Source of the DNA: Eledone cirrhosa
Lineage: Eukaryota
NCBI GenBank assembly: GCA_964016885.1
Contig: OZ024762.1
Coordinates: 29,078,001 to 29,142,000 of the forward strand
DNA length: 64,000 nucleotides
Reading direction: 5' to 3'
The notes below the pieces were generated by a model. That model worked only from the letters and a program-made list of their open reading frames with translations, made no database searches and was not told the origin of the DNA. The position numbers and the translations under genes are program-made. This document shows, in pieces, positions 1-30,800 of the stretch. Within the stretch, counting starts at the first letter, position 1. Each line of letters opens with the position of its first letter.

Positions 1-3000
1 GAAGTGACTGAGAGTACAAGACTTCCCCCTGGACAGGACACCAGTCCATCACAGGGTTATATTAAATCTAAAGTCTGTCATAAGCCAGAAGGATGTTAGG
101 CTGGTACTTATCCTGGTTTCATGGTGTGAAGTGACTGAGAGTACAAGACTTCCCCCTGGACAGGACACCACCCCATCACAGGGTTATGTTAAGTCTAAAG
201 TCTGTCTTAAACCAGAAGGATGTTAGGCCGGTAGTTATCCTTGTTTCATGGTGTGAAGTGACTGAGAGTACAAGACTTCCCCCTGGACAGGACACCAGTC
301 CATCACAGGGTTATATTAAATCTAAAGTCTGTCTTAAGCCAGAAGGATGTTAGGCTGGTACTTATCCTGGTTTCATGGTGTGAAGTGACTGAGAGTACAA
401 GACTTCCCCCTGGACAGGACACCAGTCCATCACAGGGTTATATTAAGTCTAAAGTCTGTCTTAAGCCAGAAGGATGTTAGGCCGGTACTTATCCTGGTTT
501 CATGGTGTGAAGTGACTGAGAGTACAAGACTTCCCCCTGGACAGGACACCAGTCCATCACAGGGTTATATTAAGTCTAAAGTCTGTCTTAAGCCAGAAGG
601 ATGTTAGGCCGATACTTATCCTGGTTTCATGGTGTGAAGTGACTGAGAGTACAAGACTTCCCCCTGGACAGGACACCAGTCCATCACAGGGTTATGTTAA
701 GTCTAAAGTCTGTCTTAAACCAGAAGGATGTTAGGCCGGTAGTTATCCTGGTTTCATGGTGTGAAGTGACTGAGAGTATAAGACTTCCCCCTGGACAGGA
801 CACCAGTCCATCACAGGATTATATTAAGTCTAAAGTCTGTCTTAAGCCAGAAGGATGTTTGGCCGGTACTTATCCTGGTTTCATGGTGTGAAGTGACTGA
901 GAGTACAAGACTTCCCCCTGGACAGGACACCAGTCCATCACAGGGTTATGTTAAGTCTAAAGTCTGTCTTAAACCAGAAGGATGTTAGGCCGGTAGTTAT
1001 CCTTGTTTCATGCTGTGAAGTGACTGAGAGTACAAGACTTCCCCCTGGACAGGACACCAGTCCATCACAGGGTTATATTAAATCTAAAGTCTGTCATAAG
1101 CCAGAAGGATGTTAGGCTGGTACTTATCCTGGTTTCATGGTGTGAAGTGACTGAGAGTACAAGACTTCCCCCTGGACAGGACACCACCCCATCACAGGGT
1201 TATGTTAAGTCTAAAGTCTGTCTTAAACCAGAAGGATGTTAGGCCGGTAGTTATCCTTGTTTCATGGTGTGAAGTGACTGAGAGTACAAGACTTCCCCCT
1301 GGACAGGACACCAGTCCATCACAGGGTTATATTAAGTCTAAAGTCTGTCTTAAGCCAGAAGGATGTTAGGCCGGTACTTATCCTGGTTTCATGGTGTGAA
1401 GTGACTGAGAGTACAAGACTTCCCCCTGGACAGGACACCAGTCCATCACAGGGTTATATTAAGTCTAAAGTCTGTCTTAAGCCAGAAGGATGTTAGGCCG
1501 GTAGTTATCCTGGTTTCATGGTGTGAAGTGACTGAGAGTACAAGACTTCCCCCTGGACAGGACACCAGTCCATCACAGGGTTATATTAAGTCTAAAGTCT
1601 GTCTTAAGCCAGAAGGATGTTAGGCCGATACTTATCCTGGTTTCATGGTGTGAAGTGACTGAGAGTACAAGACTTCCCCCTGGACAGGACACCAGTCCAT
1701 CACAGGGTTATATTAAGTCTAAAGTCTGTCTTAAGCCAGAAGGATGTTAGGCCGGTACTTATCCTGGTTTCATGGTGTGAAGTGACTGAGAGTACAAGAC
1801 TTCCCCCTGGACAGGACACCAGTCCATCACAGGGTAATGTTAAGTCTAAAGTCTGTCTTAAGCCAGAAGGATGTTAGGCCGGTACTTATCCTGGTTTCAT
1901 GGTGTGAAGTGACTGAGAGTACAAGACTTCCCCCTGGACAGGACACCAGTCCATCACAGGGTTATGTTAAGTCTAAAGTCTGTCTTAAACCAGAAGGATG
2001 TTAGGCCGGTACTTATCCTGGTTTCATGGTGTGAAGTGACTGAGAGTACAAGACTTCCTCCTGGACAGGACACCAGTCCATCACAGGGTTATGTTAAGTC
2101 TAAAGTCTGTCTTAAACCAGAAGGATGTTAGGCCGGTACTTATCCTGGTTTCATGGTGTGAAGTGACTGAGAGTACAAGACTTCCTCCTGGACAGGACAC
2201 CAGTCCATCACAGGGTTATGTTAAGTCTAAAGTCTGTCTTAAACCAGAAGGATGTTAGGCCGGTACTTATCCTGGTTTCATGGTGTGAAGTGACTGAGAG
2301 TACAAGACTTCCTCCTGGACAGGACACCAGTCCATCACAGGGTTATGTTAAGTCTAAAGTCTGTCTTAAACCAGAAGGATGTTAGGCCGGTACTTATCCT
2401 GGTTTCATGGTGTGAAGTGACTGAGAGTACAAGACTTCCCCCCTGGACAGGACACCAGTCCATCACAGGGTAATGTTAAGTCTAAAGTCTGTCTTAAACC
2501 AGAAGGATGTTAGGCCGGTAGTTATCCTGGTTTCATGGTGTGAAGTGACTGAGAGTACAAGACTCCCCCTGGACAGGACACCAGTACATCACAGGGTTAT
2601 GTTAAGTCTAAACTCTGTCTTAAACCAGAAGGATGTTAAGCTGGTAGTTATCCTGGTTTCATGGTGTGAAGTGACTGAGAGTACAAGACTTCCCCCTGGA
2701 CAGAACACCAGTCCATCACAGGGTTATGTTAAGTCTAAAGTCTGTCTTAAACCAGAAGGATGTTAGGCCGGTACTTATCCTGGTTTCATGGTGTGAAGTG
2801 ACTGAGAGTACAAGACTTCCCCCCTGGACAGAACACCAGTCCATCACAGGGTTATGTTAAGTCTAAAGTCTGTCTTAAGCCAGAAGGATGTTAGACCGGT
2901 AGTTATCCTGGTTTCATGGTGTGAAGTGACTGAGAGTACAAGACTTCTCCCTGGACAGGACACCAGTCCATCACAGGGTTATGTTAAGTCTAAAGTCTGT

Positions 3001-6000
3001 CTTAAACCAGAAGGATGTTAGGCCGGTAGTTATCCTGGTTTCATGGTGTGAAGTGACTGAGAGTATAAGACTTCCCCCTGGACAGGACACCAGTCCATCA
3101 CAGGATTATATTAAGTCTAAAGTCTGTCTTAAGCCAGAAGGATGTTTGGCCGGTACTTATCCTGGTTTCATGGTGTGAAGTGACTGAGAGTACAAGACTT
3201 CCCCCTGGACAGGACACCAGTCCATCACAGGGTTATGTTAAGTCTAAAGTCTGTCTTAAACCAGAAGGATGTTAGGCCGGTAGTTATCCTTGTTTCATGC
3301 TGTGAAGTGACTGAGAGTACAAGACTTCCCCCTGGACAGGACACCAGTCCATCACAGGGTTATATTAAATCTAAAGTCTGTCATAAGCCAGAAGGATGTT
3401 AGGCTGGTACTTATCCTGGTTTCATGGTGTGAAGTGACTGAGAGTACAAGACTTCCCCCTGGACAGGACACCACCCCATCACAGGGTTATGTTAAGTCTA
3501 AAGTCTGTCTTAAACCAGAAGGATGTTAGGCCGGTAGTTATCCTTGTTTCATGGTGTGAAGTGACTGAGAGTACAAGACTTCCCCCTGGACAGGACACCA
3601 GTCCATCACAGGGTTATATTAAATCTAAAGTCTGTCTTAAGCCAGAAGGATGTTAGGCTGGTACTTATCCTGGTTTCATGGTGTGAAGTGACTGAGAGTA
3701 CAAGACTTCCCCCTGGACAGGACACCAGTCCATCACAGGGTTATATTAAGTCTAAAGTCTGTCTTAAGCCAGAAGGATGTTAGGCCGGTAGTTATCCTGG
3801 TTTCATGGTGTGAAGTGACTGAGAGTACAAGACTTCCCCCTGGACAGGACACCAGTCCATCACAGGGTTATATTAAGTCTAAAGTCTGTCTTAAGCCAGA
3901 AGGATGTTAGGCCGATACTTATCCTGGTTTCATGGTGTGAAGTGACTGAGAGTACAAGACTTCCCCCTGGACAGGACACCAGTCCATCACAGGGTTATAT
4001 TAAGTCTAAAGTCTGTCTTAAGCCAGAAGGATGTTAGGCCGGTACTTATCCTGGTTTCATGGTGTGAAGTGACTGAGAGTACAAGACTTCCCCCTGGACA
4101 GGACACCAGTCCATCACAGGGTAATGTTAAGTCTAAAGTCTGTCTTAAGCCAGAAGGATGTTAGGCCGGTACTTATCCTGGTTTCATGGTGTGAAGTGAC
4201 TGAGAGTACAAGACTTCCCCCTGGACAGGACACCAGTCCATCACAGGGTTATGTTAAGTCTAAAGTCTGTCTTAAACCAGAAGGATGTTAGGCCGGTACT
4301 TATCCTGGTTTCATGGTGTGAAGTGACTGAGAGTACAAGACTTCCTCCTGGACAGGACACCAGTCCATCACAGGGTTATGTTAAGTCTAAAGTCTGTCTT
4401 AAACCAGAAGGATGTTAGGCCGGTACTTATCCTGGTTTCATGGTGTGAAGTGACTGAGAGTACAAGACTTCCTCCTGGACAGGACACCAGTCCATCACAG
4501 GGTTATGTTAAGTCTAAAGTCTGTCTTAAACCAGAAGGATGTTAGGCCGGTACTTATCCTGGTTTCATGGTGTGAAGTGACTGAGAGTACAAGACTTCCT
4601 CCTGGACAGGACACCAGTCCATCACAGGGTTATGTTAAGTCTAAAGTCTGTCTTAAACCAGAAGGATGTTAGGCCGGTACTTATCCTGGTTTCATGGTGT
4701 GAAGTGACTGAGAGTACAAGACTTCCCCCCTGGACAGGACACCAGTCCATCACAGGGTAATGTTAAGTCTAAAGTCTGTCTTAAACCAGAAGGATGTTAG
4801 GCCGGTAGTTATCCTGGTTTCATGGTGTGAAGTGACTGAGAGTACAAGACTCCCCCTGGACAGGACACCAGTACATCACAGGGTTATGTTAAGTCTAAAC
4901 TCTGTCTTAAACCAGAAGGATGTTAAGCTGGTAGTTATCCTGGTTTCATGGTGTGAAGTGACTGAGAGTACAAGACTTCCTCCTGGACAGGACACCAGTC
5001 CATCACAAGGTTATGTTAAGTCTAAAGTCTGTCTTAAGCCAGAAGGATGTTAGGCCGGTACTTATCCTGGTTTCATGGTGTGAAGTGACTGAGAGTTCAA
5101 GACTTCCCCCTGGACAGGACACCAGTCCATCACAGGGTTATGTTAAGTCTAAAGTCTGTCTTAAGCCAGAAGGATGTTAGGCTGGTACTTATCCTGGTTT
5201 CATGGTGTGAAGTGACTGAGAGTACAAGACTTCCCCCTGGACAGGACACCAGTCCATCACAGGGTTATATTAAGTCTAAAGTCTGTCTTAAGCCAGAAGG
5301 ATGTTAGGCCGGTAGTTATCCTGGTTTCATGGTGTGAAGTGACTGAGAGTACAAGACTTCCCCCTGGACAGGACACCAGTCCATCACAGGGTTATGTTAA
5401 GTCTAAAGTCTGTCTTAAACCAGAAGGATGTTAGGCCGGTACTTATCCTGGTTTCATGGTGTGAAGTGACTGAGAGTACAAGACTTCCCCCTGGACAGGA
5501 CACCAGTCCATCACAGGGTTATGTTAAGTCTAAAGTCTGTCTTAAACCAGAAGGATGTTAGGCCGGTACTTATCCTGGTTTCATGGTGTGAAGTGACTGA
5601 GAGTACAAGACTTCCCCCTGGACAGGACACCAGTCCATCACAGGGTTATGTTAAGTCTAAAGTCTGTCTTAAACCAGAGGATGTTAGGCTGGTACTTATC
5701 CTGGTTTCATGGTGTGAAGTGACTGAGAGTACAAGACTTCCCCCTGGACAGGACACCAGTCCATCACAGGGTAATGTTAAGTCTAAAGTCTGTCTTAAGC
5801 GAGAAGAATGTTAGGCCAGTACGTATCCTGGTTTCATGGTGTGAAGTGACTGAGAGTACAAGACTTCCTCCTGGACAGGACACCAGTCCATCACAGGGTT
5901 ATGTTAAGTCTAAAGTCTGTCTTAAGCGAGAAGAATGTTAGGCCAGTACGTATCCTGGTTTCATGGTGTGAAGTGACTGAGAGTACAAGACTTCTCCCTG

Positions 6001-9000
6001 GACAGGACACCAGTCCATCACAGGGTTATGTTAAGTCTAAAGTCTGTCTTAAACCAGAAGGATGTTAGGCCGGTAGTTATCCTGGTTTCATGGTGTGAAG
6101 TGACTGAGAGTATAAGACTTCCCCCTGGACAGGACACCAGTCCATCACAGGATTATATTAAGTCTAAAGTCTGTCTTAAGCCAGAAGGATGTTTGGCCGG
6201 TACTTATCCTGGTTTCATGGTGTGAAGTGACTGAGAGTACAAGACTTCCCCCTGGACAGGACACCAGTCCATCACAGGGTTATGTTAAGTCTAAAGTCTG
6301 TCTTAAACCAGAAGGATGTTAGGCCGGTAGTTATCCTTGTTTCATGCTGTGAAGTGACTGAGAGTACAAGACTTCCCCCTGGACAGGACACCAGTCCATC
6401 ACAGGGTTATATTAAATCTAAAGTCTGTCATAAGCCAGAAGGATGTTAGGCTGGTACTTATCCTGGTTTCATGGTGTGAAGTGACTGAGAGTACAAGACT
6501 TCCCCCTGGACAGGACACCACCCCATCACAGGGTTATGTTAAGTCTAAAGTCTGTCTTAAACCAGAAGGATGTTAGGCCGGTAGTTATCCTTGTTTCATG
6601 GTGTGAAGTGACTGAGAGTACAAGACTTCCCCCTGGACAGGACACCAGTCCATCACAGGGTTATATTAAATCTAAAGTCTGTCTTAAGCCAGAAGGATGT
6701 TAGGCTGGTACTTATCCTGGTTTCATGGTGTGAAGTGACTGAGAGTACAAGACTTCCCCCTGGACAGGACACCAGTCCATCACAGGGTTATATTAAGTCT
6801 AAAGTCTGTCTTAAGCCAGAAGGATGTTAGGCCGGTAGTTATCCTGGTTTCATGGTGTGAAGTGACTGAGAGTACAAGACTTCCCCCTGGACAGGACACC
6901 AGTCCATCACAGGGTTATATTAAGTCTAAAGTCTGTCTTAAGCCAGAAGGATGTTAGGCCGGTACTTATCCTGGTTTCATGGTGTGAAGTGACTGAGAGT
7001 ACAAGACTTCCCCCTGGACAGGACACCAGTCCATCACAGGGTTATATTAAGTCTAAAGTCTGTCTTAAGCCAGAAGGATGTTAGGCCGGTACTTATCCTG
7101 GTTTCATGGTGTGAAGTGACTGAGAGTACAAGACTTCCCCCTGGACAGGACACCAGTCCATCACAGGGTAATGTTAAGTCTAAAGTCTGTCTTAAGCCAG
7201 AAGGATGTTAGGCCGGTACTTATCCTGGTTTCATGGTGTGAAGTGACTGAGAGTACAAGACTTCCCCCTGGACAGGACACCAGTCCATCACAGGGTTATG
7301 TTAAGTCTAAAGTCTGTCTTAAACCAGAAGGATGTTAGGCCGGTACTTATCCTGGTTTCATGGTGTGAAGTGACTGAGAGTACAAGACTTCCTCCTGGAC
7401 AGGACACCAGTCCATCACAGGGTTATGTTAAGTCTAAAGTCTGTCTTAAACCAGAAGGATGTTAGGCCGGTACTTATCCTGGTTTCATGGTGTGAAGTGA
7501 CTGAGAGTACAAGACTTCCTCCTGGACAGGACACCAGTCCATCACAGGGTTATGTTAAGTCTAAAGTCTGTCTTAAACCAGAAGGATGTTAGGCCGGTAC
7601 TTATCCTGGTTTCATGGTGTGAAGTGACTGAGAGTACAAGACTTCCTCCTGGACAGGACACCAGTCCATCACAGGGTTATGTTAAGTCTAAAGTCTGTCT
7701 TAAACCAGAAGGATGTTAGGCCGGTACTTATCCTGGTTTCATGGTGTGAAGTGACTGAGAGTACAAGACTTCCCCCCTGGACAGGACACCAGTCCATCAC
7801 AGGGTAATGTTAAGTCTAAAGTCTGTCTTAAACCAGAAGGATGTTAGGCCGGTAGTTATCCTGGTTTCATGGTGTGAAGTGACTGAGAGTACAAGACTCC
7901 CCCTGGACAGGACACCAGTACATCACAGGGTTATGTTAAGTCTAAACTCTGTCTTAAACCAGAAGGATGTTAAGCTGGTAGTTATCCTGGTTTCATGGTG
8001 TGAAGTGACTGAGAGTACAAGACTTCCCCCTGGACAGGACACCAGTCCATCACAGGGTTATATTAAGTCTAAAGTCTGTCTTAAGCCAGAAGGATGTTAG
8101 GCCGGTAGTTATCCTGGTTTCATGGTGTGAAGTGACTGAGAGTACAAGACTTCCCCCTGGACAGGACACCAGTCCATCACAGGGTTATGTTAAGTCTAAA
8201 GTCTGTCTTAAACCAGAAGGATATTAGGCCGGTACTTATCCTGGTTTCATGGTGTGAAGTGACTGAGAGTACAAGACTTCCCCCTGGACAGGACACCAGT
8301 CCATCACAGGGTTATGTTAAGTCTAAAGTCTGTCTTAAACCAGAAGGATGTTAGGCCGGTACTTATCCTGGTTTCATGGTGTGAAGTGACTGAGAGTACA
8401 AGACTTCCCCCTGGACAGGACACCAGTCCATCACAGGGTTATGTTAAGTCTAAAGTCTGTCTTAAACCAGAGGATGTTAGGCTGGTACTTATCCTGGTTT
8501 CATGGTGTGAAGTGACTGAGAGTACAAGACTTCCCCCTTGACAGGACACCAGTCCATCACAGGGTAATGTTAAGTCTAAAGTCTGTCTTAAGCGAGAAGA
8601 ATGTTAGGCCAGTACGTATCCTGGTTTCATGGTGTGAAGTGACTGAGAGTACAAGACTTCCTCCTGGACAGGACACCAGTCCATCACAGGGTTATGTTAA
8701 GTCTAAAGTCTGTCTCAAGCGAGAAGAATGTTAGGCCAGTACGTATCCTGGTTTCATGGTGTGAAGTGACTGAGAGTACAAGACTTCCCCCTGGACAGGA
8801 CACCAGTCCATCACAGGGTTATGTTAAGTCTAAAGTCTGTCTTAAGCCAGAAGGATGTTAGGCTGGTACTTATCCTGGTTTCATGGTGTGAAGTGACTGA
8901 GAGTACAAGACTTCCCCCTGGACAGGACACCAGTCCATCACAGGGTTGTATTAAGTCTAAAGTCTGTCTTAAGCCAGAAGGATGTTAGGCCGGTAGTTAT

Positions 9001-9709
9001 CCTGGTTTCATGGTGTGAAGTGACTGAGAGTACAAGACTTCCCCCTGGACAGGACACCAGTCCATCACAGGGTTATGTTAAGTCTAAAGTCTGTCTTAAA
9101 CCAGAAGGATGTTAGGCCGGTACTTATCCTGGTTTCATGGTGTGAAGTGACTGAGAGTACAAGACTTCCCCCTGGACAGGACACCAGTCCATCACAGGGT
9201 TATGTTAAGTCTAAAGTCTGTCTTAAACCAGAAGGATGTTAGGCCGGTACTTATCCTGGTTTCATGGTGTGAAGTGACTGAGAGTACAAGACTTCCCCCT
9301 GGACAGGACACCAGTCCATCACAGGGTTATGTTAAGTCTAAAGTCTGTCTTAAACCAGAGGATGTTAGGCTGGTACTTATCCTGGTTTCATGGTGTGAAG
9401 TGACTGAGAGTACAAGACTTCCCCCTGGACAGGACACCAGTCCATCACAGGGTAATGTTAAGTCTAAAGTCTGTCTTAAGCGAGAAGAATGTTAGGCCAG
9501 TACATATCCTGGTTTCATGGTGTGAAGTGACTGAGAGTACAAGACTTCCCCCTGGACAGGACACCAGTCCATCACAGGGTTATGTTAAGTCTAAAGTCTG
9601 TCTTAAGCGAGAAGAATGTTAGGCCAGTACGTATCCTGGTTTCATGGTGTGAAGTGACTGAGAGTACAAGACTTCCCCCTGGACAGGACACCAGTCCATC
9701 ACAGGGTTA
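1..9709. repeat. 127-bp satellite array (~76 monomers, truncated by window start)
   Basis: GAAGTGACTGAGAGTACAAGACTTCCCCCTGGACAGGACACCAGTCCATCACAGGGTTAT... recurs at 1, 128, 255 etc. with few substitutions. Array ends at ...CACAGGGTTAA CCCCCCAG. Confidence 0.98.
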
Positions 9710-10882: not shown

Positions 10883-10978
10883 TCTAAACTATAATAAAGT
10901 AAGAAGTGCGGGACTGCGTACTGTTTATAATTTTTTATCCCCGTTAGTAAAATATGTTGGATTACTTTGAATAAATAA
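10883..10978 (+). mobile_element. 5' end of a putative non-autonomous Helitron-like element (copy of 19047-19142)
   Basis: A|TCTAAACTATAATAAAGTAAG... aligns with A|TCTTAACTATAATAAAGTAAG at 19047. TC start after host A. Confidence 0.55.
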
Positions 10979-11644
10979 TTGTCTCTACTTTTGGCACAAG
11001 GCCAGCAATTACCCCAGTGTATTACTGGTACTTTATTTTATCGACCCCGTAATAAATGTTTCTACTTTTGGGGGCACAAGGCCAGCAATTACCCCAGTGT
11101 ATTACTGGTACTTTATTTTATCGACCCCGTACTAAATGTTTCTACTTTTGGGGGCACAAGGCCAGCAATTACCCCAGTGTATTACTGGTACTTTATTTTA
11201 TCGACCCCGTAATAAATGTTTCTACTTTTGGGGGCACAAGGCCAGCAATTACCCCAGTGTATTACTGGTACTTTATTTTATCGACCCCGTAATAAATGTT
11301 TCTACTTTTGGGGGCACAAGGCCAGCAATTACCCCAGTGTATTACTGGTACTTTATTTTATCGACCCTGTAATAAATGTTTCTACTTTTGGGGGCACACG
11401 GCCAGCAATTACCCCAGTGTATTACTGGTACTTTATTTTACCAACCCTGTAATAATTGTCTCTACTTTTGGCACAAGTCCAGCAAATACCCCAGTGTATT
11501 ACTGGTACTTTATTTTACCAACCCCGTAATAATTGTCTCTACTTTTGGCACAAGTCCAGCAAATACCCCAGTGTATTACTGGTACTTTATTTTATCGACC
11601 CCGTAAGGATGAAAGGAAAAGTTAACTTCGGCGGGATTTGAACT
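10979..11644 (-). repeat. SINE 3' segment amplified as ~8 tandem 77-80-bp copies, followed by SINE body
   Basis: Unit GGCACAAGGCCAGCAATTACCCCAGTGTATTACTGGTACTTTATTTTATCGACCCCGTAA repeats every ~80 bp. The last copy continues GGATGAAAGGAAAAGTTAACTTCGGCGGGATTTGAACT, as in the single-copy SINE at 19143-19331. Confidence 0.92.
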
Positions 11645-12129: not shown

Positions 12130-12495
12130 TGTAGCGGTTGTCTCCCTTGTTTTGATTGGGATCTAGACGGGAGGTGGAACCCTTTCTGCGACTTCCGGTC
12201 AGAGCCCTATAAAACTAACAACTTTAAGCTTCCTCCCTCTCTTTGCCTTTTCGGCACCAGGTCGAAGAGCCTCTCATTTGGCTCTGCCATTAATTTGGCC
12301 AACAGGCGCCTGGCCTTAGCCAGGCGCCCTCTGCCAGCCGCGTTTGCCTGGCAATCAAAACGGTAACTACTAACTTTGTTTCATTCTAACATCTATCTTT
12401 GACATGTCAAGTATTCTATCTACCGTTAATTAAATATTATATACACAAACAATGTCTCGTTTTGTTACATTCATACAACCAGTACCCTCCTTATA
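12130..12495 (+). repeat. 5' LTR
   Basis: Near-identical to 13864-14229. Contains ACTTCCGG, CTATAAAA and the hairpin GGCGCCTGGC-CTTA-GCCAGGCGCC. Confidence 0.93.
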
Positions 12496-12496
12496 T

Positions 12497-12528
12497 TGGT
12501 AACCCTGACGTGATACGAACACGCAGCC
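12497..12528 (+). promoter_or_regulatory. Primer binding site complementary to the tRNA-Trp 3' end (extended)
   Basis: TGGTAACCCTGACGTGATACGAACACGCAGCC compared with the complement of recalled animal tRNA-Trp, TGGTGACCCCGACGTGATTCGAACACGCAGCC. Begins 1 nt after the LTR. Confidence 0.85.
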
Positions 12529-13863
12529 GTTCATCGCTATAAGGGTCACCCCCCAAAAAAAGAAAAAAATAGCACATCTGGTTTTGTGAGTAACATTACG
12601 AATACACAGCAAATTTAGCGACAAACTATGAAAATACTCAAGGACACGCACATGTGGAATTCGCACAGACATACTTTTTCTCTCACGCATCAATTAACTG
12701 TCGCATTTCACCAATATATATATATATGTTTCTCGTTTCTTACAACGAACACTTTCAAAACAAAAAAAAACATTTCACGATATATATATATGTTTCTCGT
12801 TTCTTACAACGAACTCTTTCAAAACACAAAAAAAAAAAAAAAGAAATTTGATATTCTTTAAAAAACATTTCAACAGGAACATTTATTTTCGATGAACCAT
12901 TGCCTTTTGTTCATCGTTTTCTTCATCGTTCAAGTTTTTTGTTTTTTTCCAAAGTTCACACCTATAATTATGCTGATTGAAGCCTTTCTTTTTCATCATT
13001 GTCACTTTCAAAATTGCACTATCATTTTCTCGCGCGTTAGAAATATTTTTTTTCAACCTTGTATTGGCACGTGTAGGCAGCATAAATTCTCGATTCACTG
13101 AGATGTCTCTACTCACAGACAGCCGCACGCCAGAGATAGCATTTCTCCCCCAAGGATTCTTCAGCCTTAAGCTATATTCTTCTATTTGCCGGTTTATAAA
13201 TTTACAATGTAAATTTACCGTTGATAACCGCGCATTTATTAAGAATGCTTATTTCTCTGGTCGCTGGCCTCTTGACCCTTCCAGGTCAACGCATTCTCAA
13301 CATCGACCATCAACTTCGGCTGCTATTTCTAGCACTTTGCGCAACTCATTTTTTTCTAAAAAAAAATTTTTTTACTGTGAATTTAAACACCGAATACGCT
13401 CACTCAGCGAGACAACAGCAGCAGCAACAGCAATATAACAGCAACAGCAATACATCAATACAGCTTCACCAAAGCCAGAGAATTTATTTTTGCAGCACTC
13501 TTCCTGTGAGAAAATCCATTCGGAGGTTGGAAATTTCACGATATACCACAGAACAGAAACCACCTGCATTCATTCTCTGGAACACACTTTCTTTCCTGCT
13601 GTCATGTGATTGCACACCTGTGAACTATATTTTGAACTTTGAGCTCTTCTATTACTTTTACTTTATTACATTGTATCTTTGGGTGATGGATAGATGGATG
13701 TCCAGTCGTTCTCTGGCCAAGAGCGGTTGGCTACCTTGATATCTATCATTGATTTTTCCAAACATTCTTTTGTCGTAATTTTCATGCCTGTTACAACATT
13801 CTCGCCAACTTGCTACATATTTTCATTTCGATTTTTATACACTAAAATTCTGGCGGGAGGTTA

Positions 13864-14229
13864 TGTAGCGGTTGTCTCCCTTGTTTTGATTGGGATCTAG
13901 ACGGGAGGTGGAACCCTTTCTGCGACTTCCGGTCAGAGCCCTATAAAACTAATAACTTTAAGCTTCCTCCCTCTCTTTGCCTTTTCGGCACCAGGTCGAA
14001 GAGCCTCTCATTTGGCTCTGCCATTAATTTGGCCAACAGGCGCCTGGCCTTAGCCAGGCGCCCTCTGCCAGCCGCGTTTGCCTGGCAATCAAAACGGTAA
14101 CTACTAACTTTGTTTCATTCTAACATCTATCTTTGACATGTCAAGTATTCTATCTACCGTTAATTAAATATTATATACACAAACAATGTCTCGTTTTGTT
14201 ACATTCATACAACCAGTACCCTCGCTATA
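13864..14229 (+). repeat. 3' LTR
   Basis: Direct repeat of 12130-12495, preceded by a PPT-like tract and followed by the GTAC TSD. Confidence 0.93.
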
Positions 14230-15138: not shown

Positions 15139-16391
<1,253 letters not shown>

Positions 16392-16751
16392 GGGAAATCT
16401 TTCATTAGTAACACTGAATATAATAAACACAAAATAACACACGCTTGTGAAAAACTTTTTACACAGTGAAATATGTGGGAAATGTTTTTTTCTCTAACAG
16501 TTACTTAGACACAAACATACAGAGGAATGAAAGTTTTTAACTGTGAAACACGGACATCCTTCCTCTTACAAATCTAAAATTATTTTCCACCAATATCAAA
16601 TGTGAATACTTGGCAGTTTGATAGACTCCAAACATTGCTGGCCATTTTTACAAATATATTTTCATTTGAAATTGAAATCTTTCTCTGATCTATTCTTGAC
16701 TTTTTGAATTAATTTTAAATCTATGCCAGAAATTTCAGCCTTGGTTTGTCA

Positions 16752-17480: not shown

Positions 17481-17660
17481 AAATTTCTTTCTGACTCCTT
17501 TTTTTTATTGATTTTATGTTTTGTAAATAATTTATTAATTTTTCATAATTAATTTTATAAATTGTATTTATGTCCTGAATTTCATTCTATTTGTTGTTAA
17601 TAAAAGAATTATATTTAAGGAATTTATTAAGTCTATAACTTCAACTTTTTGTTATTTTGC

Positions 17661-18742
17661 CATCTAAATCTGTTGTTAACACCATATGTAATGATATCAT
17701 CTTGTAAGTAGTTTTAATACATCTAACACCCATCTAAATCTCTGTTATTAACACCATATGTAATGATATCATCTTGTAAGTTGTTTTAATACATCTAACA
17801 CCCATCTAAATCTGTTATTAAGACCATATGTAATGATATCATCTTGTAAGTAGTTTTAATATCTAACACCCATCTAAATCTCTGTTATTAACACCATATG
17901 TAATGATATCAACTTGTAAGTAGTTTTAATACATCTAACACCCATCTAAATCTCTGTTATTAATACCATATGCAATGATATCATCTTGTAAGTAGTTTTA
18001 ATAACTAACACACATCTAAATCTCTGTTATTAACACCATATGTAATGATATCTTGTAAGTAGTTTTAATACATCTAACACCCATCTAAATCTCTGTTATT
18101 AACACCATATGTAATGATATCATCTTGTAAGTAGTTTTAATATCTAACACCCATCTAAATCTCTGTTATTAACACCATATGTAATGATATCTTGTAAGTA
18201 GTTTTAATACATCTAACACCCATCTAAATCTCTGTTATTAACACCATATGTAATGATATCATCTTGTAAGTAGTTTTAATACATCTAACACCCATCTAAA
18301 TCTCTGTTATTAACACCATATGTAATGATATCATCTTGTAAGTAGTTTTAATACATCTAACACCCATCTAAATCTCTGTTATTAACACCATATGTAATGA
18401 TATCATCTTGTAAGTAGTTTTAATATCTAACACCCATCTAAATCTCTGTTATAAACACCATATGTAATGATATCTTGTAAGTAGTTTTAATACATCTAAC
18501 ACCCATCTAAATCTCTGTTATTAACACCATATGTAATGATATCATCTTGTAAGTAGTTTTAATACATCTAACACCCATCTAAATCTCTGTTATTAACACC
18601 ATATGTAATGATATCATCTTGTAAGTAGTTTTAATACATCTAACACCCATCTAAATCTCTGTTATAAACACCATATGTAATGATATCATCTTGTAAGTAG
18701 TTTTAATACATCTAACATCCATCTAAATCTCTGTTATTAACA
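17661..18742. repeat. ~72-bp AT-rich tandem repeat, ~15 copies
   Basis: Unit CATCTAAATCTCTGTTATTAACACCATATGTAATGATATCATCTTGTAAGTAGTTTTAATACATCTAACACC. Confidence 0.95.
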
Positions 18743-21077: not shown

Positions 21078-21600
21078 CATGTAGGTGTCACAAGACAAAA
21101 ACACACAGTCCACGCTGTAATGTGGCCGTGTAGGTAACACGGTAAAAACCTCCCAGTTCCACATTGTAAATGTGGTTCGAGTTAGGAAGGGCATCCAGCT
21201 GTAGAAAACCCACCAGACATGTAGGTGTTACAACAAAAAAACACACAGTCCACGCTGTAATGTGGCCGTGTAGGTAACACGGTAAAAACCTCCCAGTTCC
21301 ACATTGTAAATGTGGTTCGAGTTAGGAAGGGCATCCAGCTGTAGAAAACCCACCAGACATGTAGGTGTTACAACAAAAAAACACACAGTCCACGCTGTAA
21401 TGTGGCCGTGTAGGTAACACGGTAAAAACCTCCCAGTTCCACATTGTAAATGTGGTTCGAGTTAGGAAGGGCATCCAGCTGTAGAAAACCCACCAGACAT
21501 GTAGGTGTTACAACAAAAAAACACACAGTCCACGCTGTAATGTGGCCGTGTAGGTAACACGGTAAAAACCTCCCAGTTCCACACTGTAAACGTGGTTGGT
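21078..21600 (+). repeat. 140-bp tandem repeat (~3.7 copies) derived from RTE-LINE 3' UTR
   Basis: CATGTAGGTG starts at 21078, 21218, 21358, 21498. Each unit holds AGGAAGGGCATCCAGCTGTAGAAA. Confidence 0.92.
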
Positions 21601-22400
21601 GTTTGGAGCATAACTTAATAAAGGTTCTGACATGGAATTATAATGAAAGGTTTTTAGAACAAACAGTTTTGTGTCATAGAAGTAGGGTTGTTTGGAACAT
21701 AACTTAACAAAGGTTCTTATATAAAATTATCCATCAGAGTATTCGGTTTATGTGTGTTACTTATGTTTTAGAGAGTATTATGCACATAAAAAAATTCAAC
21801 TTTTTTATCTCCTAGGGCCTGCATTAGGTGAAAAACTGCGTGTTTTTTTTTCAGGTTTCTAGGGTTTTTTGAGGCGTTATGTCAGACCGATTTCCTTGAA
21901 ATTGTAACTATGTATTAGTCAGCCTCTTCATACCGTGAGCAAAGAAAATCCAATTTTCTTATGGCCTAGGGCTCGCTTTAGGTGAAAAACTTCATTTTTT
22001 CAGCATTTTAGGGCTTTTTTTGAGGCGTTACATCAGACTGATTTCCTTGAAATTGTAACTATGTATTAGTCAGCCTCTTCTTCATACCGGGAGCAAAGAA
22101 AATCCAACTTTCTTATGGCCTAGGGCCCGCATTATGGTGAAAAACTTCATTTTTTTCAGCTTCTTAGGGCTTTTTTGAGGCGTTACGTCTATCAGATATC
22201 CCGAAATTTCAAGGTATATTATGCACATAAGAAAATTTCATTTCCTTGATCCCCTAGGGCCCGCATTAGGTGAAAACCTGCATTTTTCCTGCTTCATAGA
22301 GGGAAAATCTTAGATTATCCAGCCATCAGACTATTCGGTTTATTTTCTTTACATATTGTCCAGGCATGCATTTTTTCCACAATTAGGTCTGTTGGTGGCC
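21600..22400. repeat. Degenerate ~150-bp repeated module, probably DNA-transposon/Helitron internal sequence
   Basis: CCTAGGGCCCGCATTAGGTGAAAA-like motif at ~21811, 21965, 22119, 22253. TTTTTTGAGGCGTTA recurs. Confidence 0.6.
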
Positions 22401-22407
22401 CGCGTTC

Positions 22408-23483
22408 CATGTGGGAGTGGATTACATGTGGGGCTGGAGGGACAGTGGGAGTGGATTACATGTGGGGCTGGAGGGACAGTGGGAGTACATTACATGTGGG
22501 GCTGGAGGGACAGTGGGAGTACATTACATGTGGGGCTGGAGGGACAGTGGGATTGCATTACATTACATGTGGGGCTGGAGGGACAGTGGGAGTACATTAC
22601 ATGTGGGGCTGGAGGGACAGTAGGATTGCATTACATGTGGGGCTGGAGGGACAGTGGGAGTGGATTACATGTGGGGCTGCAGGGACAGTGGGAGTGCATT
22701 ACATGTGGGGCTGAAGAGACAGTGGGAGTGCATTACATGTGGGGCTGCAGGGACAGTGGGAGTGCATTACATGTGGGGCTGGAGGGACAGTGGGAGTGCA
22801 TTACATGTGGGGCTGGAGGGACAGTGGGATTGCATTACATGTGGGGCTGGAGGGACAGTGGGATTGCATTACATGTGGGGCTGGAGGGACAGTGGGATTG
22901 CATTACATGTGGGGCTGGAGGGACAGTGGGATTGCATTACATGTGGGGATGGAGGGACAGTGGGATTGCATTACATGTGGGGCTGGAGGGACAGTGGCAG
23001 TGGATTACATGTGGGGCTGAAGAGACAGTGGGAGTGCATTACATGTGGGGCTGCAGGGACAGTGGGAGTGCATTACATGTGGGGCTGGAGGGACAGTGGG
23101 AGTGCATTACATGTGGGGCTGGAGGGACAGTGGGATTGCATTACATGTGGGGCTGGAGGGACAGTGGGATTGCATTACATGTGGGGCTGGAGGGACAGTG
23201 GGATTGCATTACATGTGGGGCTGGAGGGACAGTGGGATTGCATTACATGTGGGGATGGAGGGACAGTGGGATTGCATTACATGTGGGGCTGGAGGGACAG
23301 TGGCAGTGGATTACATGTGGGGCTGGAGGGACAGTGGGAGTGCATTACATGTGATGCTGGAGGGACAGTGGGAGTGCATTACATGTGGCGCTGGAGGGAC
23401 AGTGGGATTGCATTACATGTGGGGCTGGAGGGACAGTGGGAGTGCATTACATGTGGGGCTGGAGGGACAGTGGGAGTGCATTA
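22408..23483 (+). repeat. 34-bp G-rich minisatellite, left arm (~31 copies)
   Basis: Unit ACATGTGGGGCTGGAGGGACAGTGGGA(G/T)TGCATT. Confidence 0.97.
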
Positions 23484-23484
23484 T

Positions 23485-23512
23485 CCCGTGCAACGCCGGG
23501 TACCACTGCTAG
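23485..23512 (+). mobile_element. Helitron 3' terminus (subterminal hairpin plus CTAG)
   Basis: CCCGTGCAACGCCGGG-TACCACTG-CTAG followed by host T. Confidence 0.75.
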
Positions 23513-23557
23513 TATGTCAAAACGGGGGCCCTACATATATAATGTTTCTATTTTCAG

Positions 23558-23616
23558 ATGGTATCCGACATATTGCCAGCTACTTCATCCAGCAAACACG
23601 TTTCCACATGAAGAAG
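23558..23616 (+). CDS. Candidate internal exon (59 bp) of an unidentified host gene
   Basis: Acceptor TGTTTCTATTTTCAG| and donor AAG|GTGAGT. Non-repetitive sequence. Two open frames: (x)GIRHIASYFIQQTRFHMKK or WYPTYCQLLHPANTFPHEE. Confidence 0.7.
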
Positions 23617-23624
23617 GTGAGTAG

Positions 23625-23895
23625 AGGTAGGTGGGGCACATGGGAGGGAGGGAAGTGGGTAACTGGGGGATATGGGGGGGAGTAAGTGGGTAACGGGAGA
23701 CATGGGACGGGGTAACTGGGGGACATGGGAGAGAGGATGGTGGCTAACTGGGGCACATGGGAGGGGCGTAGAGGGGTAACTGGGGGACGTGAGAGGGAGG
23801 GAGGTGGGGGACATGGGTAGGTGGGTAACTGGAGGACATGGGAGGGGGGAAGGTGGGTAACTGGGGGATATGAGGGTGGGATGGGGAGGCCTGGG
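23625..23895 (+). repeat. Degenerate G-rich repeat (GGGTAACTGGGGG..CATGGG)
   Basis: About 7 imperfect copies of GGGTAACTGGGGGA/CATGGGAG with dense G-runs. Confidence 0.75.
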
Positions 23896-23951
23896 AGTTT
23901 TTTGTTTGTGAAGGTGGTGGTGGTATCTGTAGTGGTGGTGTGCTACATGTA

Positions 23952-26900
23952 CCACTCTCTCCAGCCCCACATGTAATGCACTCCCACTGTCTCTCCAGCC
24001 CCACATGTAATCCACTCCCACTGTCTCTCCAGCCCCACATGTAATGCACTCCCACTGTCTCTCCAGCCCCACATGTAATGCAATCCCACTCTCCCTCCAG
24101 CCCCACATGTAATGTACTCCCACTGTCCCTCCAGCCCCACATGTAATGCACTCCCACTGTCTCTCCAGCCCCACATGTAATGCAATCCCACTGTCCCTCC
24201 AGCCCCACATGTAATGCACTCCCACTGTCACTCCAGCCCCACATGTAATCCACTCCCATTGTCTCTCCAGCCCCACATGTAATGCACTCCCACTGTCCCT
24301 CCAGCCCCACATGTAATCCACTCCCACTGTCCCTCCAGCCCCACATGTAATCCACTCCCACTGTCTCTCCAGCCCCACATGTAATCCACTCCCACTGTCC
24401 CTCCAGCCCCACATGTAATCCACTCCCACTGTCCCTCCAGCCCCACATGTAATCCACTCCCACTGTCTCTCCAGCCCCACATGTAATGCAATCCCACTGT
24501 CCCTCCAGCCCCACATGTAATGCAATCCCACTGTCCCTCCAGCCCCACATGTAATGCAATCCCACTGTCCCTCCAGCCCCACATGTAATGCAATCCCACT
24601 GTCCCTCCAGCCCCACATGTAATGCAATCCCACTGTCCCTCCATCCCCACATGTAATGCACTCCCACTGTCCCTCCAGCCCCACATGTATTGCAATCCCA
24701 CTGTCCCTCCAGCCCCACATGTAATGCAATCCCACTGTCCCTCCATCCCCACATGTAATGCAATCCCACTGTCCCTCCAGCCCCACATGTAATGCAATCC
24801 CACTGACCCTCCAGCCCCACATGTAATGCAATCCCACTGTCCCTCCAGCCCCACATGTAATGCAATCCCACTGTCCCTCCAGCCCCACATGTAATGCAAT
24901 CCCACTGTCCCTCCATCCCCACATGTAATGCAATCCCACTGTCCCTCCAGCCCCACATGTAATGCAATCCCACTGTCCCTCCAGCCCCACATGTAATCCA
25001 GCCCCACATGTAATCCACTCCCACTGTCTCTCCAGCCCCACATGTAATCCACTCCCACTGTCCCTCCAGCCCCACATGTAATCCACTCCCACTGTCCCTC
25101 CAGCCCCACATGTAATGCAATCCCACTGTCCCTCCAGCCCCACATGTAATCCAGCCCCACATGTAATCCAGCCCCACATGTAATCCACTCCCACTGTCTC
25201 TCCAGCCCCACATGTAATCCACTCCCACTGTCCCTCCAGCCCCACATGTAATCCACTCCCACTGTCCCTCCAGCCCCACATGTAATCCACTCCCACTGTC
25301 TCTCCAGCCCCACATGTAATGCAATCCCACTGTCCCTCCAGCCCCACATGTAATGCAATCCCACTGTCCCTCCAGCCCCACATGTAATGCAATCCCACTG
25401 TCCCTCCAGCCCCACATGTAATGCAATCCCACTGTCCCTCCAGCCCCACATGTAATGCAATCCCACTGTCCCTCCATCCCCACATGTAATGCACTCCCAC
25501 TGTCCCTCCAGCCCCACATGTATTGCAATCCCACTGTCCCTCCAGCCCCACATGTAATGCAATCCCACTGTCCCTCCATCCCCACATGTAATGCAATCCC
25601 ACTGTCCCTCCAGCCCCACATGTAATGCAATCCCACTGTCCCTCCAGCCCCACATGTAATGCAATCCCACTGTCCCTCCATCCCCACATGTAATGCAATC
25701 CCACTGTCCCTCCAGCCCCACATGTAATGCAATCCCACTGTCCCTCCATCCCCACATGTAATGCAATCCCACTGTCCCTCCAGCCCCACATGTAATGCAC
25801 TCCCACTGTCTCTCCAGCCCCACATGTAATGCAATCCCACTGTCCCTCCAGCCCCACATGTAATCCAATCCCACTGTCCCTCCAGCCCCACATGTAATGC
25901 AATCCCACTGTCCCTCCAGCCCCACATGTAATGCAATCCCACTGTCTCTCCAGCCCCACATGTAATGCAATCCCACTGTCCCTCCAGCCCCACATGTAAT
26001 CCAATCCCACTGTCCCTCCAGACCCACATGTAATGCAATCCCACTGTCCCTCCAGCCCCATATGTAATGCAATCCCACTGTCCCTCCAGCCCCACATGTA
26101 ATGCAATCCCACTGTCCCTCCATCCCCACATGTAATGCAATTGCACTGTCCCTCCATCCCCACATGTAATGCAATCGCACTGTCCCTCCAGCCCCACATG
26201 TAATGCAATCCCACTGTCCCTCCATCCCCACATGTAATGCAATCCCACTGTCCCTCCATCCCCACATGTAATGCAATCCCACTGTCCCTCCAGCCCCACA
26301 TGTAATGCAATCCCACTGTCCCTCCATCCCCACATGTAATGCAATCCCACTGTCCCTCCAGCCCCACATGTAATGCAATCCCACTGTCCCTCCAGCCCCA
26401 CATGTAATGCAATCCCACTGTCCCTCCAGCCCCACATGTAATGCAATCCCACTGTCCCTCCATCCCCACATGTAATGCAATCCCACTGTCCCTCCAGCCC
26501 CACATGTAATGCACTCCCACTGTCTCTCCAGCCCCACATGTAATGCAATCCCACTGTCCCTCCAGCCCCACATGTAATGCAATCCCACTGTCCCTCCAGC
26601 CCCACATGTAATGCAATACCACTGTCCCTCCAGCCCCACATGTAATGCAATCCCACTGTCCCTCCATCCCCACATGTAATGCAATCCCACTGTCCCTCCA
26701 TCCCCACATGTAATGCAATCCCACTGTCCCTCCAGCCCCACATGTAATGCAATCCCACTGTCCCTCCATCCCCACATGTAATGCAATCCCACTGTCCCTC
26801 CAGCTCCACATGTAATGCAATCCCACTGTCCCTCCAGCCCCACATGTAATGCAATCCCACTGTCCCTCCATCCCCACATGTAATGCAATCCCACTGTCCC

Positions 26901-27265
26901 TCCAGCCCCACATGTAATGCAATCCCACTGTCCCTCCAGCCCCACATGTAATGCAATCCCACTGTCCCTCCAGCCCCACATGTAATGCAATCCCACTGTC
27001 CCTCCATCCCCACATGTAATGCAATCCCACTGTCCCTCCAGCCCCACATGTAATGCACTCCCACTGTCTCTCCAGCCCCACATGTAATGCAATCCCACTG
27101 TCCCTCCAGCCCCACATGTAATGCAATCCCACTGTCCCTCCAGCCCCACATGTAATGCAATCCCACTGTCCCTCCAGCCCCACATGTAATCCAATCCCAC
27201 TGTCCCTCCAGCCCCACATGTAATCCAATCCCACTGTCCCTCCATCCCCACATGTAATGCAATCC
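23952..27265 (-). repeat. 34-bp minisatellite, right arm in inverted orientation (~97 copies)
   Basis: Unit AATGCAATCCCACTGTCCCTCCAGCCCCACATGT is the reverse complement of the 22408-23483 unit. Confidence 0.97.
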
Positions 27266-27390
27266 CTGGGGATTTCGATTGTTAAATTTGTTTGTTTCAA
27301 TATTTTTACACGACTCTATGTAAAATCCCCGGCATGTGTCTTTGTATTGACCCCTTTTCTTGTGCGCCCTTGTGGAAAATATAGAAATAT

Positions 27391-27500
27391 ATCATCATCA
27401 TCACTTTACGTCTGCTTTTCCCTGCTTGCAAGGGTGGGACGGGAACTGATTCTGGCTTGATTTCTACAGCTGGATGCCCTTCTTAACACCAACCTCATTT
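27391..27500 (-). mobile_element. 3' terminus of an RTE-type LINE with (TGA)n tail
   Basis: Minus strand GAAGGGCATCCAGCTGTAGAAA...GAAAAGCAGACGTAAAGTGATGATGATGAT. Same motifs as 11948-12100 and the 140-bp unit. Confidence 0.8.
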
Positions 27501-27820
27501 ACAGTTAGTGCTGGGTGCTTTTTTGCCATGGCACCTCCACGACCACTTTGCAGTGAGTGCTGGGTGCTTTTTTGCCGTGGCACCTCCACGACCACTTTAC
27601 AGTGAGTGCTGGGTGCTTTTTTGCCATGGCACCTCCACGACCACTTTACAGTGAGTGCTGGGTGCTTTTTTGCCGTGGCACCTCCACGACCACTTTACAG
27701 TGAGTGCTGGGTGCTTTTTTGCCATGGCACCTCCACGACCACTTTACAGTGAGTGCTGGGTGCTTTTTTGCCGTGGCACCTCCACGACCACTTTACAGTG
27801 AGTGCTGGGTGCTTTTTTGC
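27498..27820. repeat. 49-bp tandem repeat (~6.5 copies, alternating GCCAT/GCCGT variants)
   Basis: Unit ACAGTGAGTGCTGGGTGCTTTTTTGCCRTGGCACCTCCACGACCACTTT, contiguous with the LINE 3' UTR. Confidence 0.93.
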
Positions 27821-30800
27821 CACCTCAGTCTTCTCTCCCACACACCACAACTTATCCCTCTTATACACAGTTTCTCTCTGAACACATCACATGTCCATAC
27901 CACCTCAGTCATCTCTCCCACACACCACAACTTATCCCTCTTATACACAGTTTCTCTCTCAACACATCACATGTCCATACCATCTCAATCTTCTCTCCCA
28001 CACACCACAACTTATCCCTCTTATACACAGTTAATCTCTCAACACATCACATGACCATACCACCTCAGTCATCTCTCTCACACACCACAACTTATCCCTC
28101 TTATACCCAGTTTCTCTCTCAACACATCACATGTCCATACCACCTCAGTCATCTCTCCCACACACCACAACTTATCCCACTAATACACAGTTTCTCTCTC
28201 AACACATCACATGTCCATTCCATCTCAGTCTTCTCTCCCACACACTACAACTTATCCCTCTGATACCCAGTTTCTCTCTCAACACATCACATGTCCATAC
28301 CATCTCAGTCTCCTCTCCCACACACTACAACTTATCCCTCTTATACACAGTTTCTCTCTCAACGCATCACATGTCCATACCACCTCAGTGATCTCTCCCA
28401 CACACCACAACTTATCCCTCTTATACACAGTTTCTCTCTCAACACATCACATATCCATACCACCTCAGTCTTCTCTCCCACACACCACAACTTATCCCTC
28501 TTATACACAGTTTCTCTCTCAACACATCACATGTCCATTCCATCTCAGTCTTTTCTCCCACACACCACAACTTATCCCTCTTATACCCAGTTTCTTTCTC
28601 AACACATCACATGTCCATACCACCTCAGTCATCTCTCCCACACACCACAACTTATCCCTCTTATACCCAGTTTCTCTCTCAACTCATCACATGTCCATAC
28701 CATCTCAGTCTTCTCTCCCACACACTACAACTTATCCCTCTTATACACAGTTTCTCTCTCAACGCATCACATGTCCATACCACCTCAGTCATCTCTCCCA
28801 CACACCACAACTTATCCCTCTTATACCCAGTTTCTCTCTCAACACATCACATGTCCATACCATCTCAGTCTTCTCTCCCACACACTACAACTTATCCCTC
28901 TTATACACAGTTTCTCTCTCAACGCATCACATGTCCATTCCATCTCAGTCTTCTCTCCCACACACTACAACTTATCCCTCTTATACACAGTTTCTCTCTC
29001 AACACATCACATGTCCATACCACCTCAGTGATCTCTCCCACACACCACAACTTATCCCTCTTATACACAGTTTCTCTCTCAACACATCACATATCCATAC
29101 CACCTCAGTCTTCTCTCCCACACACCACAACTTATCCCTCTTATACACAGTTTCTCTCTCAACACAAAATGTCCATACCATCTCAGTCATCTCTCTCACA
29201 CACTACGACTTATCCCTCTTATACACAGTTTCTCTCTCAACACATCACATGTCCATACCACCTCAGTCATCTCTCCCACACACCACAACTTAACCCTCTT
29301 ATACCCAGTTTCTCTCTCAACTCATCACATGTCCATACCATCTCAGTCTTCTCTCCCACACACTACAACTTATCCCTCTTATACACAGTTTCTCTCTCAA
29401 CACATCACATGTCCATACCACCTCAGTGATCTCTCCCACACACCACAACTTATCCCTCTTATACACAGTTTCTCTCTCAACACATCACATGTCCACAGCA
29501 TCTCAGTCATCTCTCTCACACACTACGACTTATCCCTCTTATACACAGTTTCTCTCTCAACACATCACATGTCCATTCCATCTCAGTCTTCTCTCCCACA
29601 CACCACAACTTATCCCTCTTATATCCAGTTTCTCTCTCAACACATCACATGTCCATACCACCTCAGTCTTCTCTCCCACACACCACAACTTATCCCTCTT
29701 ATACACAGTTTCTCTCTGAACACATCACATGTCCATACAACCTCAGTCATCTCTCCCACACACCACAACTTATCCCTCTTATACACAGTTTCTCTCTCAA
29801 CACATCACATGTCCATACCATCTCAATCTTCTCTCCCACACACCACAACTTATCCCTCTTATACACAGTTAATCTCTCAACACATCACATGACCATACCA
29901 CCTCAGTCATCTCTCTCACACACCACAACTTATCCCTCTTATACCCAGTTTCTCTCTCAACACATCACATGTCCATACCACCTCAGTCTTCTCTCCCACA
30001 CACCACAACTTATCCCTCTTATACCCAGTTTCTCTCTCAACACATCACATGTCCATACCATCCCAGTCTTCTCCTCCGCTCACTACAACTTATCCTTCTG
30101 ATACACAGTTTCTCTCCCACACACCACAACTTATCCCTCTTATACACCGTTTCTCTCTCAACACATCACATGTACATACCATCTTAGTCTTCTCTCGCAC
30201 AAACCACAATTTATCCCTCTTATACCCAGTTTCTCTCTCAACACATCACATGTCCATACCATCTCAGTCTTCTCTCCCACACATTACAACTTATGCCTCT
30301 TATACGCAGTTTCACACTCAACACATCACATGTCCATACCATCGCAGCCTTCTCTCCCACACACCACAACTTATCCCTCTTATACCCAGTTTCTCTCTCA
30401 ATACATCACATGTCCATACCATCGCAGCCTTCTCTTCCACACACCACAACTTATCCCTGTTATACACAGTTTCACACTCATCACATCACATGTCCATACC
30501 ATCGCAGCCTTCTCTCCCACACACCACAACTTATCCCTCTTATACCCAGTTTCTCTCTCAACATATCACATGTCCATACCATCTCAGTCTTCTCTCCCAC
30601 ACACTACAACTTACCAATCTGATACCCAGTTTCTCTCTCAACACATCACATGTCCATACCATCTCAGTCTTCTCTCCCACACACTACAACTTATCCCTCT
30701 TATACACAGTTTCTCTCTCAACACATCATATGTCCATACCATCTCAGTCTTCTCTCCCACACACCACAACTTCTCCCTCTTATACAGAGTTTCTCTCTCA

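Follow-up and report, generated by a model that had tools for sequence, protein, structure and literature searches.

Can a short exon held between two opposed minisatellite arrays act as a splicing switch, or is such a layout the trace of DNA repair in a gene copy that no longer works? The question is raised by a 64,000-nt stretch of the Eledone cirrhosa genome (contig OZ024762.1, positions 29,078,001 to 29,142,000), hereafter the window, in which a 59-bp exon of the telomerase reverse transcriptase gene TERT sits in the loop of a kilobase-scale inverted repeat. We consider it probable that the locus is a TERT pseudogene fragment and that its inverted repeat is neutral, left behind by DNA repair instead of serving as a splicing switch. 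Coordinates without a contig name refer to the window.

A TERT exon between opposed arrays

The argument turns on the following features.
22411-23483, plus strand: left arm, 31 units (31.4 copies by Tandem Repeats Finder, TRF) of a 34-bp minisatellite
23558-23616, plus strand: 59-bp TERT exon (C-terminal extension) that runs from phase 1 to phase 0 and has lost its neighbours in the window copy (splice sites, protein match, copies)
23632-23808, plus strand: degenerate G-rich 32-bp repeat just past the donor site (TRF)
23959-27266, minus strand: right arm, about 97 units (TRF 30.6 and 66.8 copies) of the complementary 34-bp array

A first-pass annotation of the window had described the 59-bp segment as an exon with consensus splice sites. 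The segment is bordered by a pyrimidine-rich AG acceptor and a GTGAGT donor, matches residues 105-128 of Octopus vulgaris TERT (CAI9741689.1) and, in three further copies of the locus on contig C27 (A, B and C), is in phase with both neighbouring exons. Some 3-4 kb upstream of the segment, these copies have a further exon of 130 bp. This exon is above the PF21399 TERT_C cut-off (38.8 bits, Pfam), its PDB matches are TERT in all four cases (best E 0.0056, human residues 990-1033), and a protein search with it retrieved two proteins bearing TERT_C, namely O. vulgaris TERT and an Argonauta protein. These nearest named proteins agree with the cephalopod source supposed in the first-pass annotation and make an octopod most likely. 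Mapping with O. vulgaris TERT placed five exons of 130, 59, 56, 103 and 81 bp in order up to the stop codon of copies A and B. All have AG/GT edges, are in phase and lack internal stops, and together form a complete open C-terminal extension that in copy B comprises 142 amino acids with 58% identity to O. vulgaris TERT (E 5e-57). Because the C27 exons are in phase and share this identity, the 59-bp segment is, by sequence comparison, a real coding exon of the TERT C-terminal extension. Taken singly, neither the 59-bp nor the 103-bp exon had a PDB or Pfam match, both being too short. Of the word-based protein searches, one with the 45-residue exon found nothing, another returned three bivalve TERTs and another the query itself only. 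One of four protein matches to an exon query was a repetitive chance match and was dropped.

The opposed arrays were confirmed by TRF as first described, with the same 34-bp unit extending over about 1.1 kb and about 3.3 kb. They are 475 bp apart and have unit types in common; the left arm ends 74 nt from the exon and the right arm, whose inner end fades into a degenerate partial unit, begins 342 nt past the donor. A 27-base part of the unit has 335 exact matches in the genome (119 forward, 216 reverse; control 0), all of them within the four copies of the locus, so the unit is locus-specific. The arms can pair in 44 ungapped registers of more than 90% identity, the best reaching 95%, and the predicted fold of a 951-nt sub-stretch (-597.7 kcal/mol) is a long stem with the exon in its loop. 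The z-score of this fold (-25 against 20 shuffles) is a weak control that shows the presence of an inverted repeat and nothing beyond, because any long inverted repeat outscores shuffles. RNA from the locus, if transcribed, is predicted to form a duplex of about 1 kb that loops out the exon, as the first-pass annotation had proposed. It overlooked that parts of the spacer are repetitive, namely the high-copy 3' end of a Helitron (23484-23512) and the G-rich 32-bp repeat. No G-quadruplex motif was found in the arms with loops of up to 12 nt, and seven four-run G motifs lie on the sense strand at 23617-23900; such a G-rich repeat may act as a splicing enhancer or form a G-quadruplex.

Four copies of the locus and the decay of one

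A genome search with the spacer gave 88 candidates, of which 40 were scored, and four near-identical places: the window copy on contig C23 and copies A (14.72 Mb), B (14.25 Mb) and C (13.14 Mb) on C27. A protein search led to the same four places (4 of 4 candidates). Both arms, with the same four junctions, are present in every copy, on two chromosomes and on both strands. Judged by their unique introns, which differ from copy B by 0.35-0.7%, the four copies are recent duplicates; the duplicated blocks reach at least 100 kb upstream. Unit order and array length differ among the copies (left/right units 31/97 in the window, 47/36 in A, 66/19 in B, 90/114 in C), and the proposed variability in repeat number is thus real, at 19-114 units. 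Ongoing conversion between the arms was not seen, as the arms of one copy (unit-make-up distance 0.46-0.54) are no closer than the paralogous arms of A and B (0.06 and 0.22). Five of the five TERT exons are present in each of A and B, three in C and one in the window. In copy C the last two TERT exons are lost at a point, 23.4-25.4 kb past the 59-bp exon, where there is a 1.5-kb inverted duplication.

Comparison with these copies reveals how the window copy has decayed.
21603-21604, plus strand: deletion junction at which 368 bp of copy B, the 130-bp TERT exon among them, are missing (copy comparison)
27820-27822, plus strand: deletion junction that joins a 49-bp array to an 80-bp array; at least 15 kb of copy B are missing, and with them the 56-bp and 103-bp TERT exons (copy comparison)
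27820-64000, plus strand: 80-bp array, continuing to C23:29252000 (TRF, copy comparison)

With both neighbouring exons lost, the window copy is likely a pseudogene fragment of TERT. On the assembled sequence an inverted-arm switch cannot act in this copy, because the preceding exon and the next two are deleted. The idea that the repeats tune splicing therefore fails here, where the loss of the 130-, 56- and 103-bp exons leaves no TERT frame. The accompanying prediction that skipping would shift the frame is sound: in the intact exon context of C27, the spliced piece without the 59-bp exon runs into a stop seven codons later, at nt 153, which lies 136 nt before the last junction of that piece. 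A premature stop so placed before the last junction would trigger decay by the usual rule. The arms had also been suggested to drive back-splicing of the exon into a circular RNA. They do flank the exon closely, and for circularisation it is enough to have short inverted repeats next to splice sites, but in the same study (PMC4201285) ZKSCAN1 exons of up to 400 nt formed circles poorly or failed to do so, and with an exon of 59 nt that is alone in the loop we regard this outcome as scarcely credible.

The 21603 junction carries a 2-bp exact microhomology within a 7-of-9 match. No terminal TERT exon was found beyond the 80-bp array; the last exon has three genome matches, none of them on C23. 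The array itself measures at least 146 kb here, as opposed to about 7 kb in A and B, where it lies in the last TERT intron, and appears as a satellite-scale block grown from an intronic repeat. At 12130-14223 lies a 2.1-kb long terminal repeat (LTR) element with 360-bp LTRs that are 99.7% alike and a short target duplication; copies A-C lack it at this position. Another copy of the element, 97% alike, lies within the 80-bp array near C23:29212300. A single-exon C2H2 zinc-finger gene at 15139-16402, on the same strand as the TERT exons, has an open reading frame cut to 310 amino acids here against 417 in B, with 226 in A and C, and its 85-88% relatives form a tandem cluster at C27:2.53-2.57 Mb. 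Further arrays at 1-9709, 10974-11606, 17660-18742, 21078-21597 and 27498-27822 (127, 80, 72, 140 and 49 bp) vary in length among the four copies; several of them may derive from repeats that resemble short interspersed elements (SINEs).

In a region so rich in repeats, the inversion, the four copies or the deletions could be assembly errors, which we consider highly unlikely. Contigs were available from three runs of one sample (X1-X3), whose depth (19-24 for the spacer, 31-33 for the undeleted exon) was not used as copy number. These contigs contain the undeleted form; among those listed none bridges the 21603 junction, high-copy repeats having swamped the reads, nor does any bridge an arm junction. 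The copies are 99.3-99.65% alike, and the absent 5' half of the gene, discussed below, suggests an imperfect assembly of the locus. However, the four arm junctions are common to all the copies, which lie on two chromosomes and on both strands and differ in unit order and length; the single spacer contig in X1-X3 carries letters that occur in the C27 copies, and no N is present in any stretch examined.

A Helitron host and the origin of the left arm

The left arm interrupts a transposable element.
21750-22409, plus strand: body of a Helitron-like element of non-autonomous type, which contains a tandem repeat of 154 bp (TRF) and is split by the left array; dispersed copies L006-L008 are 85-90% identical
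23484-23512, plus strand: Helitron 3' end, with a 16-bp hairpin at 23485-23500 and a terminal CTAG at 23509-23512, then T (sequence, genome matches)

A 3' hairpin followed by CTAG is a hallmark of Helitrons (PMC12001565), and the ending of hairpin, CTAG and T is the same in all three readable dispersed copies (a fourth, L005, was not alignable). This end alone is covered by 36 of the 40 scored spacer matches, and the loose ends of contigs start at 23514-23520. At the 5' side, TC after A and a TA-rich start are seen in L008 (852 bp to CTAG); no such start was found in the window copy, where the 5' part is cut or rearranged. The left array replaces about 5 bp of the element, and the three readable paralogous copies, L006-L008, which serve as the empty state, have no array there and about five ordinary bases instead. 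Its junctions with the Helitron show microhomology of two bases on the outer and five bases on the inner side.

Templated insertions are recognised by an inverted orientation, a template close by and microhomology (PMC8421209). The left arm is likely an inverted templated copy of the right arm, which is the simplest source because the 34-bp unit is found nowhere else. Delivery of the array by the Helitron was rejected: the 27-base unit motif is found nowhere else in the genome, so that the array was not carried in by transposition, and array-free Helitron copies exist. Moreover, the layout needs no selection, because three similar close inverted pairs of kilobase scale occur in the 1.47 Mb scanned, a repeat-rich and biased sample.

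The proposed history would start with the 34-bp minisatellite arising in the intron after the exon; a Helitron, still recognisable, came to lie in the intron that precedes the exon. After a break in this element, repair by a template switch to the opposite-strand array 0.5 kb away would have left the inverted array copy in place of about 5 bp that the junctions record. As the present lengths suggest, both arms would then have lengthened and shortened independently. Segmental duplication spread the 3' end of TERT through C2H2 zinc-finger clusters, where its copies now lie, and the C23 copy acquired the two deletions, the LTR insertion and the large expansion of the 80-bp array that distinguish it today. 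No TERT protein depends on the duplex in the window copy.

Several points weigh against this reading of a pseudogene fragment with a neutral repeat. Both deletions are known from the assembly alone. Because both arms accompany the exon in all four copies, the arrangement is older than the duplications and may exist in the working gene as well. The insertions described in PMC8421209 are short and within 100 bp of their template, whereas the distance here is about 475 bp and a later expansion must be assumed; likewise, that the right arm came first is an inference. Finally, all four copies have the same undamaged 59-bp exon with the same splice sites, although at 0.35-0.7% divergence this identity is expected by chance (P 0.22-0.66) and tells nothing about selection. 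For the same reason, a test for purifying selection on the exons is uninformative.

The catalytic half of TERT and known systems

Whether a working TERT shares the arms depends on where the rest of the gene lies. No exon of the reverse transcriptase (RT) side was found with RT-side parts of four proteins in 1.67 Mb around the copies. The sequence searched upstream measured 433 kb for B (as far as the end of A), 340 kb for A, 260 kb for C and 153 kb for the window copy; as controls, O. vulgaris TERT found five of the five C-terminal exons and the Argonauta protein three. Genome-wide, no RT, RNA-binding or TEN exon was found in heuristic searches (Pfam profiles, proteins, motif patterns) that miss short exons: the Argonauta protein missed the 103-bp exons of A and B, and O. 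vulgaris TERT the 59-, 56- and 81-bp exons. Weak matches to PF12009, PF17984 and PF11474 and to proteins were judged chance or retroelement RTs, and four degenerate motif patterns gave five matches in total against five in controls. Ten weak loci were checked for the 5' half of TERT, and the sole yield was an orphan 103-bp TERT exon on C10 (C10:54765011-54765191, 97% identity), 0.5 Mb from the contig end, where it adjoins degenerate telomere-like arrays. A second orphan exon at C27:2.56 Mb (95% identity) has an internal stop and lies inside the zinc-finger cluster. With one exon each, both of these older orphans were rejected as the parent gene. Altogether, the genome holds six 3' fragments of TERT, at least four of them incomplete.

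Still, an active TERT probably exists, because canonical terminal telomere arrays are present: a telomeric hexamer of about 4 kb, correctly oriented and near-perfect, ends 4 of 20 sampled contig ends. Copy B looks 5'-truncated, and copy A may represent the 3' end of a gene whose start is distant or unassembled; alternatively, the working gene lies outside the assembly. About 95 kb upstream of the exon, copy B contains an opposite-strand reverse transcriptase fragment with a weak TERT match (E 8e-4), Penelope-like by appearance. Long interrupted interstitial blocks of telomeric repeat occur at C1:208.56-208.59 Mb and 217.83 Mb, in the middle of the largest chromosome, possibly at old fusion sites. 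That the lineage has lost the catalytic half, with decaying 3' fragments left behind and telomeres kept by another route, would agree with the negative local and genome-wide searches and with the state of the six fragments. We nevertheless consider it most improbable, given searches that miss known short exons, the terminal telomere arrays, the open frame over five exons in A and B and an assembly of 1,796 contigs.

A different possibility is that the same arms are present in a working TERT, which would be copy A, its 5' half distant or unassembled, or else a fifth copy missing from the assembly. Their pairing would cause exon skipping, a premature stop and decay, arm length would set the amount of active telomerase, and the window copy would be a dead witness of this arrangement. 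The presence of both arms in all four exon copies, the complete open C-terminal extension of A and B and the likely existence of an active TERT, suggested by the telomeric ends, speak for it. In each of X1-X3, a single contig covers the spacer as far as the Helitron end, and the matches listed include no exon with a different flank. Precedents exist as well: the variable number tandem repeat (VNTR) in intron 6 of human TERT acts by RNA pairing (PMC3948165) and by length (PMC11830802), and inverted Alu duplexes go along with exon skipping (PMC13019944). On the other hand, the RT-side search over the distances given above found nothing while its control found all C-terminal exons, arm lengths drift freely between 19 and 114 units, and similar inverted pairs lie nearby. 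In addition, with the right arm beginning 342 nt past the donor, splice sites may be chosen before that arm is made. We regard this reading as unlikely. The animal is short-lived and edits its RNA heavily. That repeat number in a working octopod TERT sets skipping, decay and telomerase dose through a frame-shifting 59-nt exon in the loop of a length-variable inverted minisatellite appears decidedly unlikely to us.

The locus offers what seems a clear case of an exon-flanking inverted repeat arising in one step. Furthermore, the scattering of the 3' end of TERT as six fragments through zinc-finger clusters, with the catalytic half unlocated, matters for the annotation of this genome. If the intact gene shares the arms, its alleles would form a natural series (19-114 units) in which to relate minisatellite length to telomerase splicing outside primates.

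In literature searches, no paper on cephalopod TERT was among the matches listed (most subscription journals lie outside the coverage). Compared with the known TERT C-terminal extension (PF21399; CAI9741689.1; PDB 7qxa), the exons are collinear, with 58% identity over 142 amino acids in copy B, but here only the last five exons were found (one in the window copy), and the RT, RNA-binding and TEN domains were not located. Templated insertions of the MMB-TI type (PMC8421209) resemble the left arm in their inverted orientation near the template, the microhomology at both junctions and the few bases replaced. They differ in that the template here is about 475 bp away rather than at most 100 bp, and an insert of 1-3 kb requires later tandem expansion. 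The minisatellite-bearing Helitrons Heli2Xen and DINE (PMC12001565) likewise hold a tandem array within a non-autonomous element, whereas here the array is not part of the family and its unit motif occurs at no other place in the genome. Inverted Alu pairs that loop out exons (PMC13019944, PMC4201285) share the complementary intronic repeats on either side and the predicted long duplex; unlike these dispersed SINEs, the arms described here are a locus-specific, length-variable minisatellite with 44 alternative registers.

The closest parallel is VNTR6-1 in intron 6 of human TERT (PMC3948165, PMC11830802). It too is a G-rich variable minisatellite of similar unit length (38 bp) in a TERT intron, and in both cases skipping would yield a non-functional, decay-prone message. 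However, VNTR6-1 is a single array, located more than 1 kb away from the junctions; it forms G-quadruplexes or pairs with distal non-repeat RNA, with an effect shown by experiment. The locus described here has two complementary arrays, 74 and 342 nt from the exon that they flank, in a different part of the gene, and they are known from DNA alone. We infer that the two systems originated independently. If it proved true, a switch in a working octopod TERT would be an independent and simpler parallel to human VNTR6-1, derived from one repair accident.

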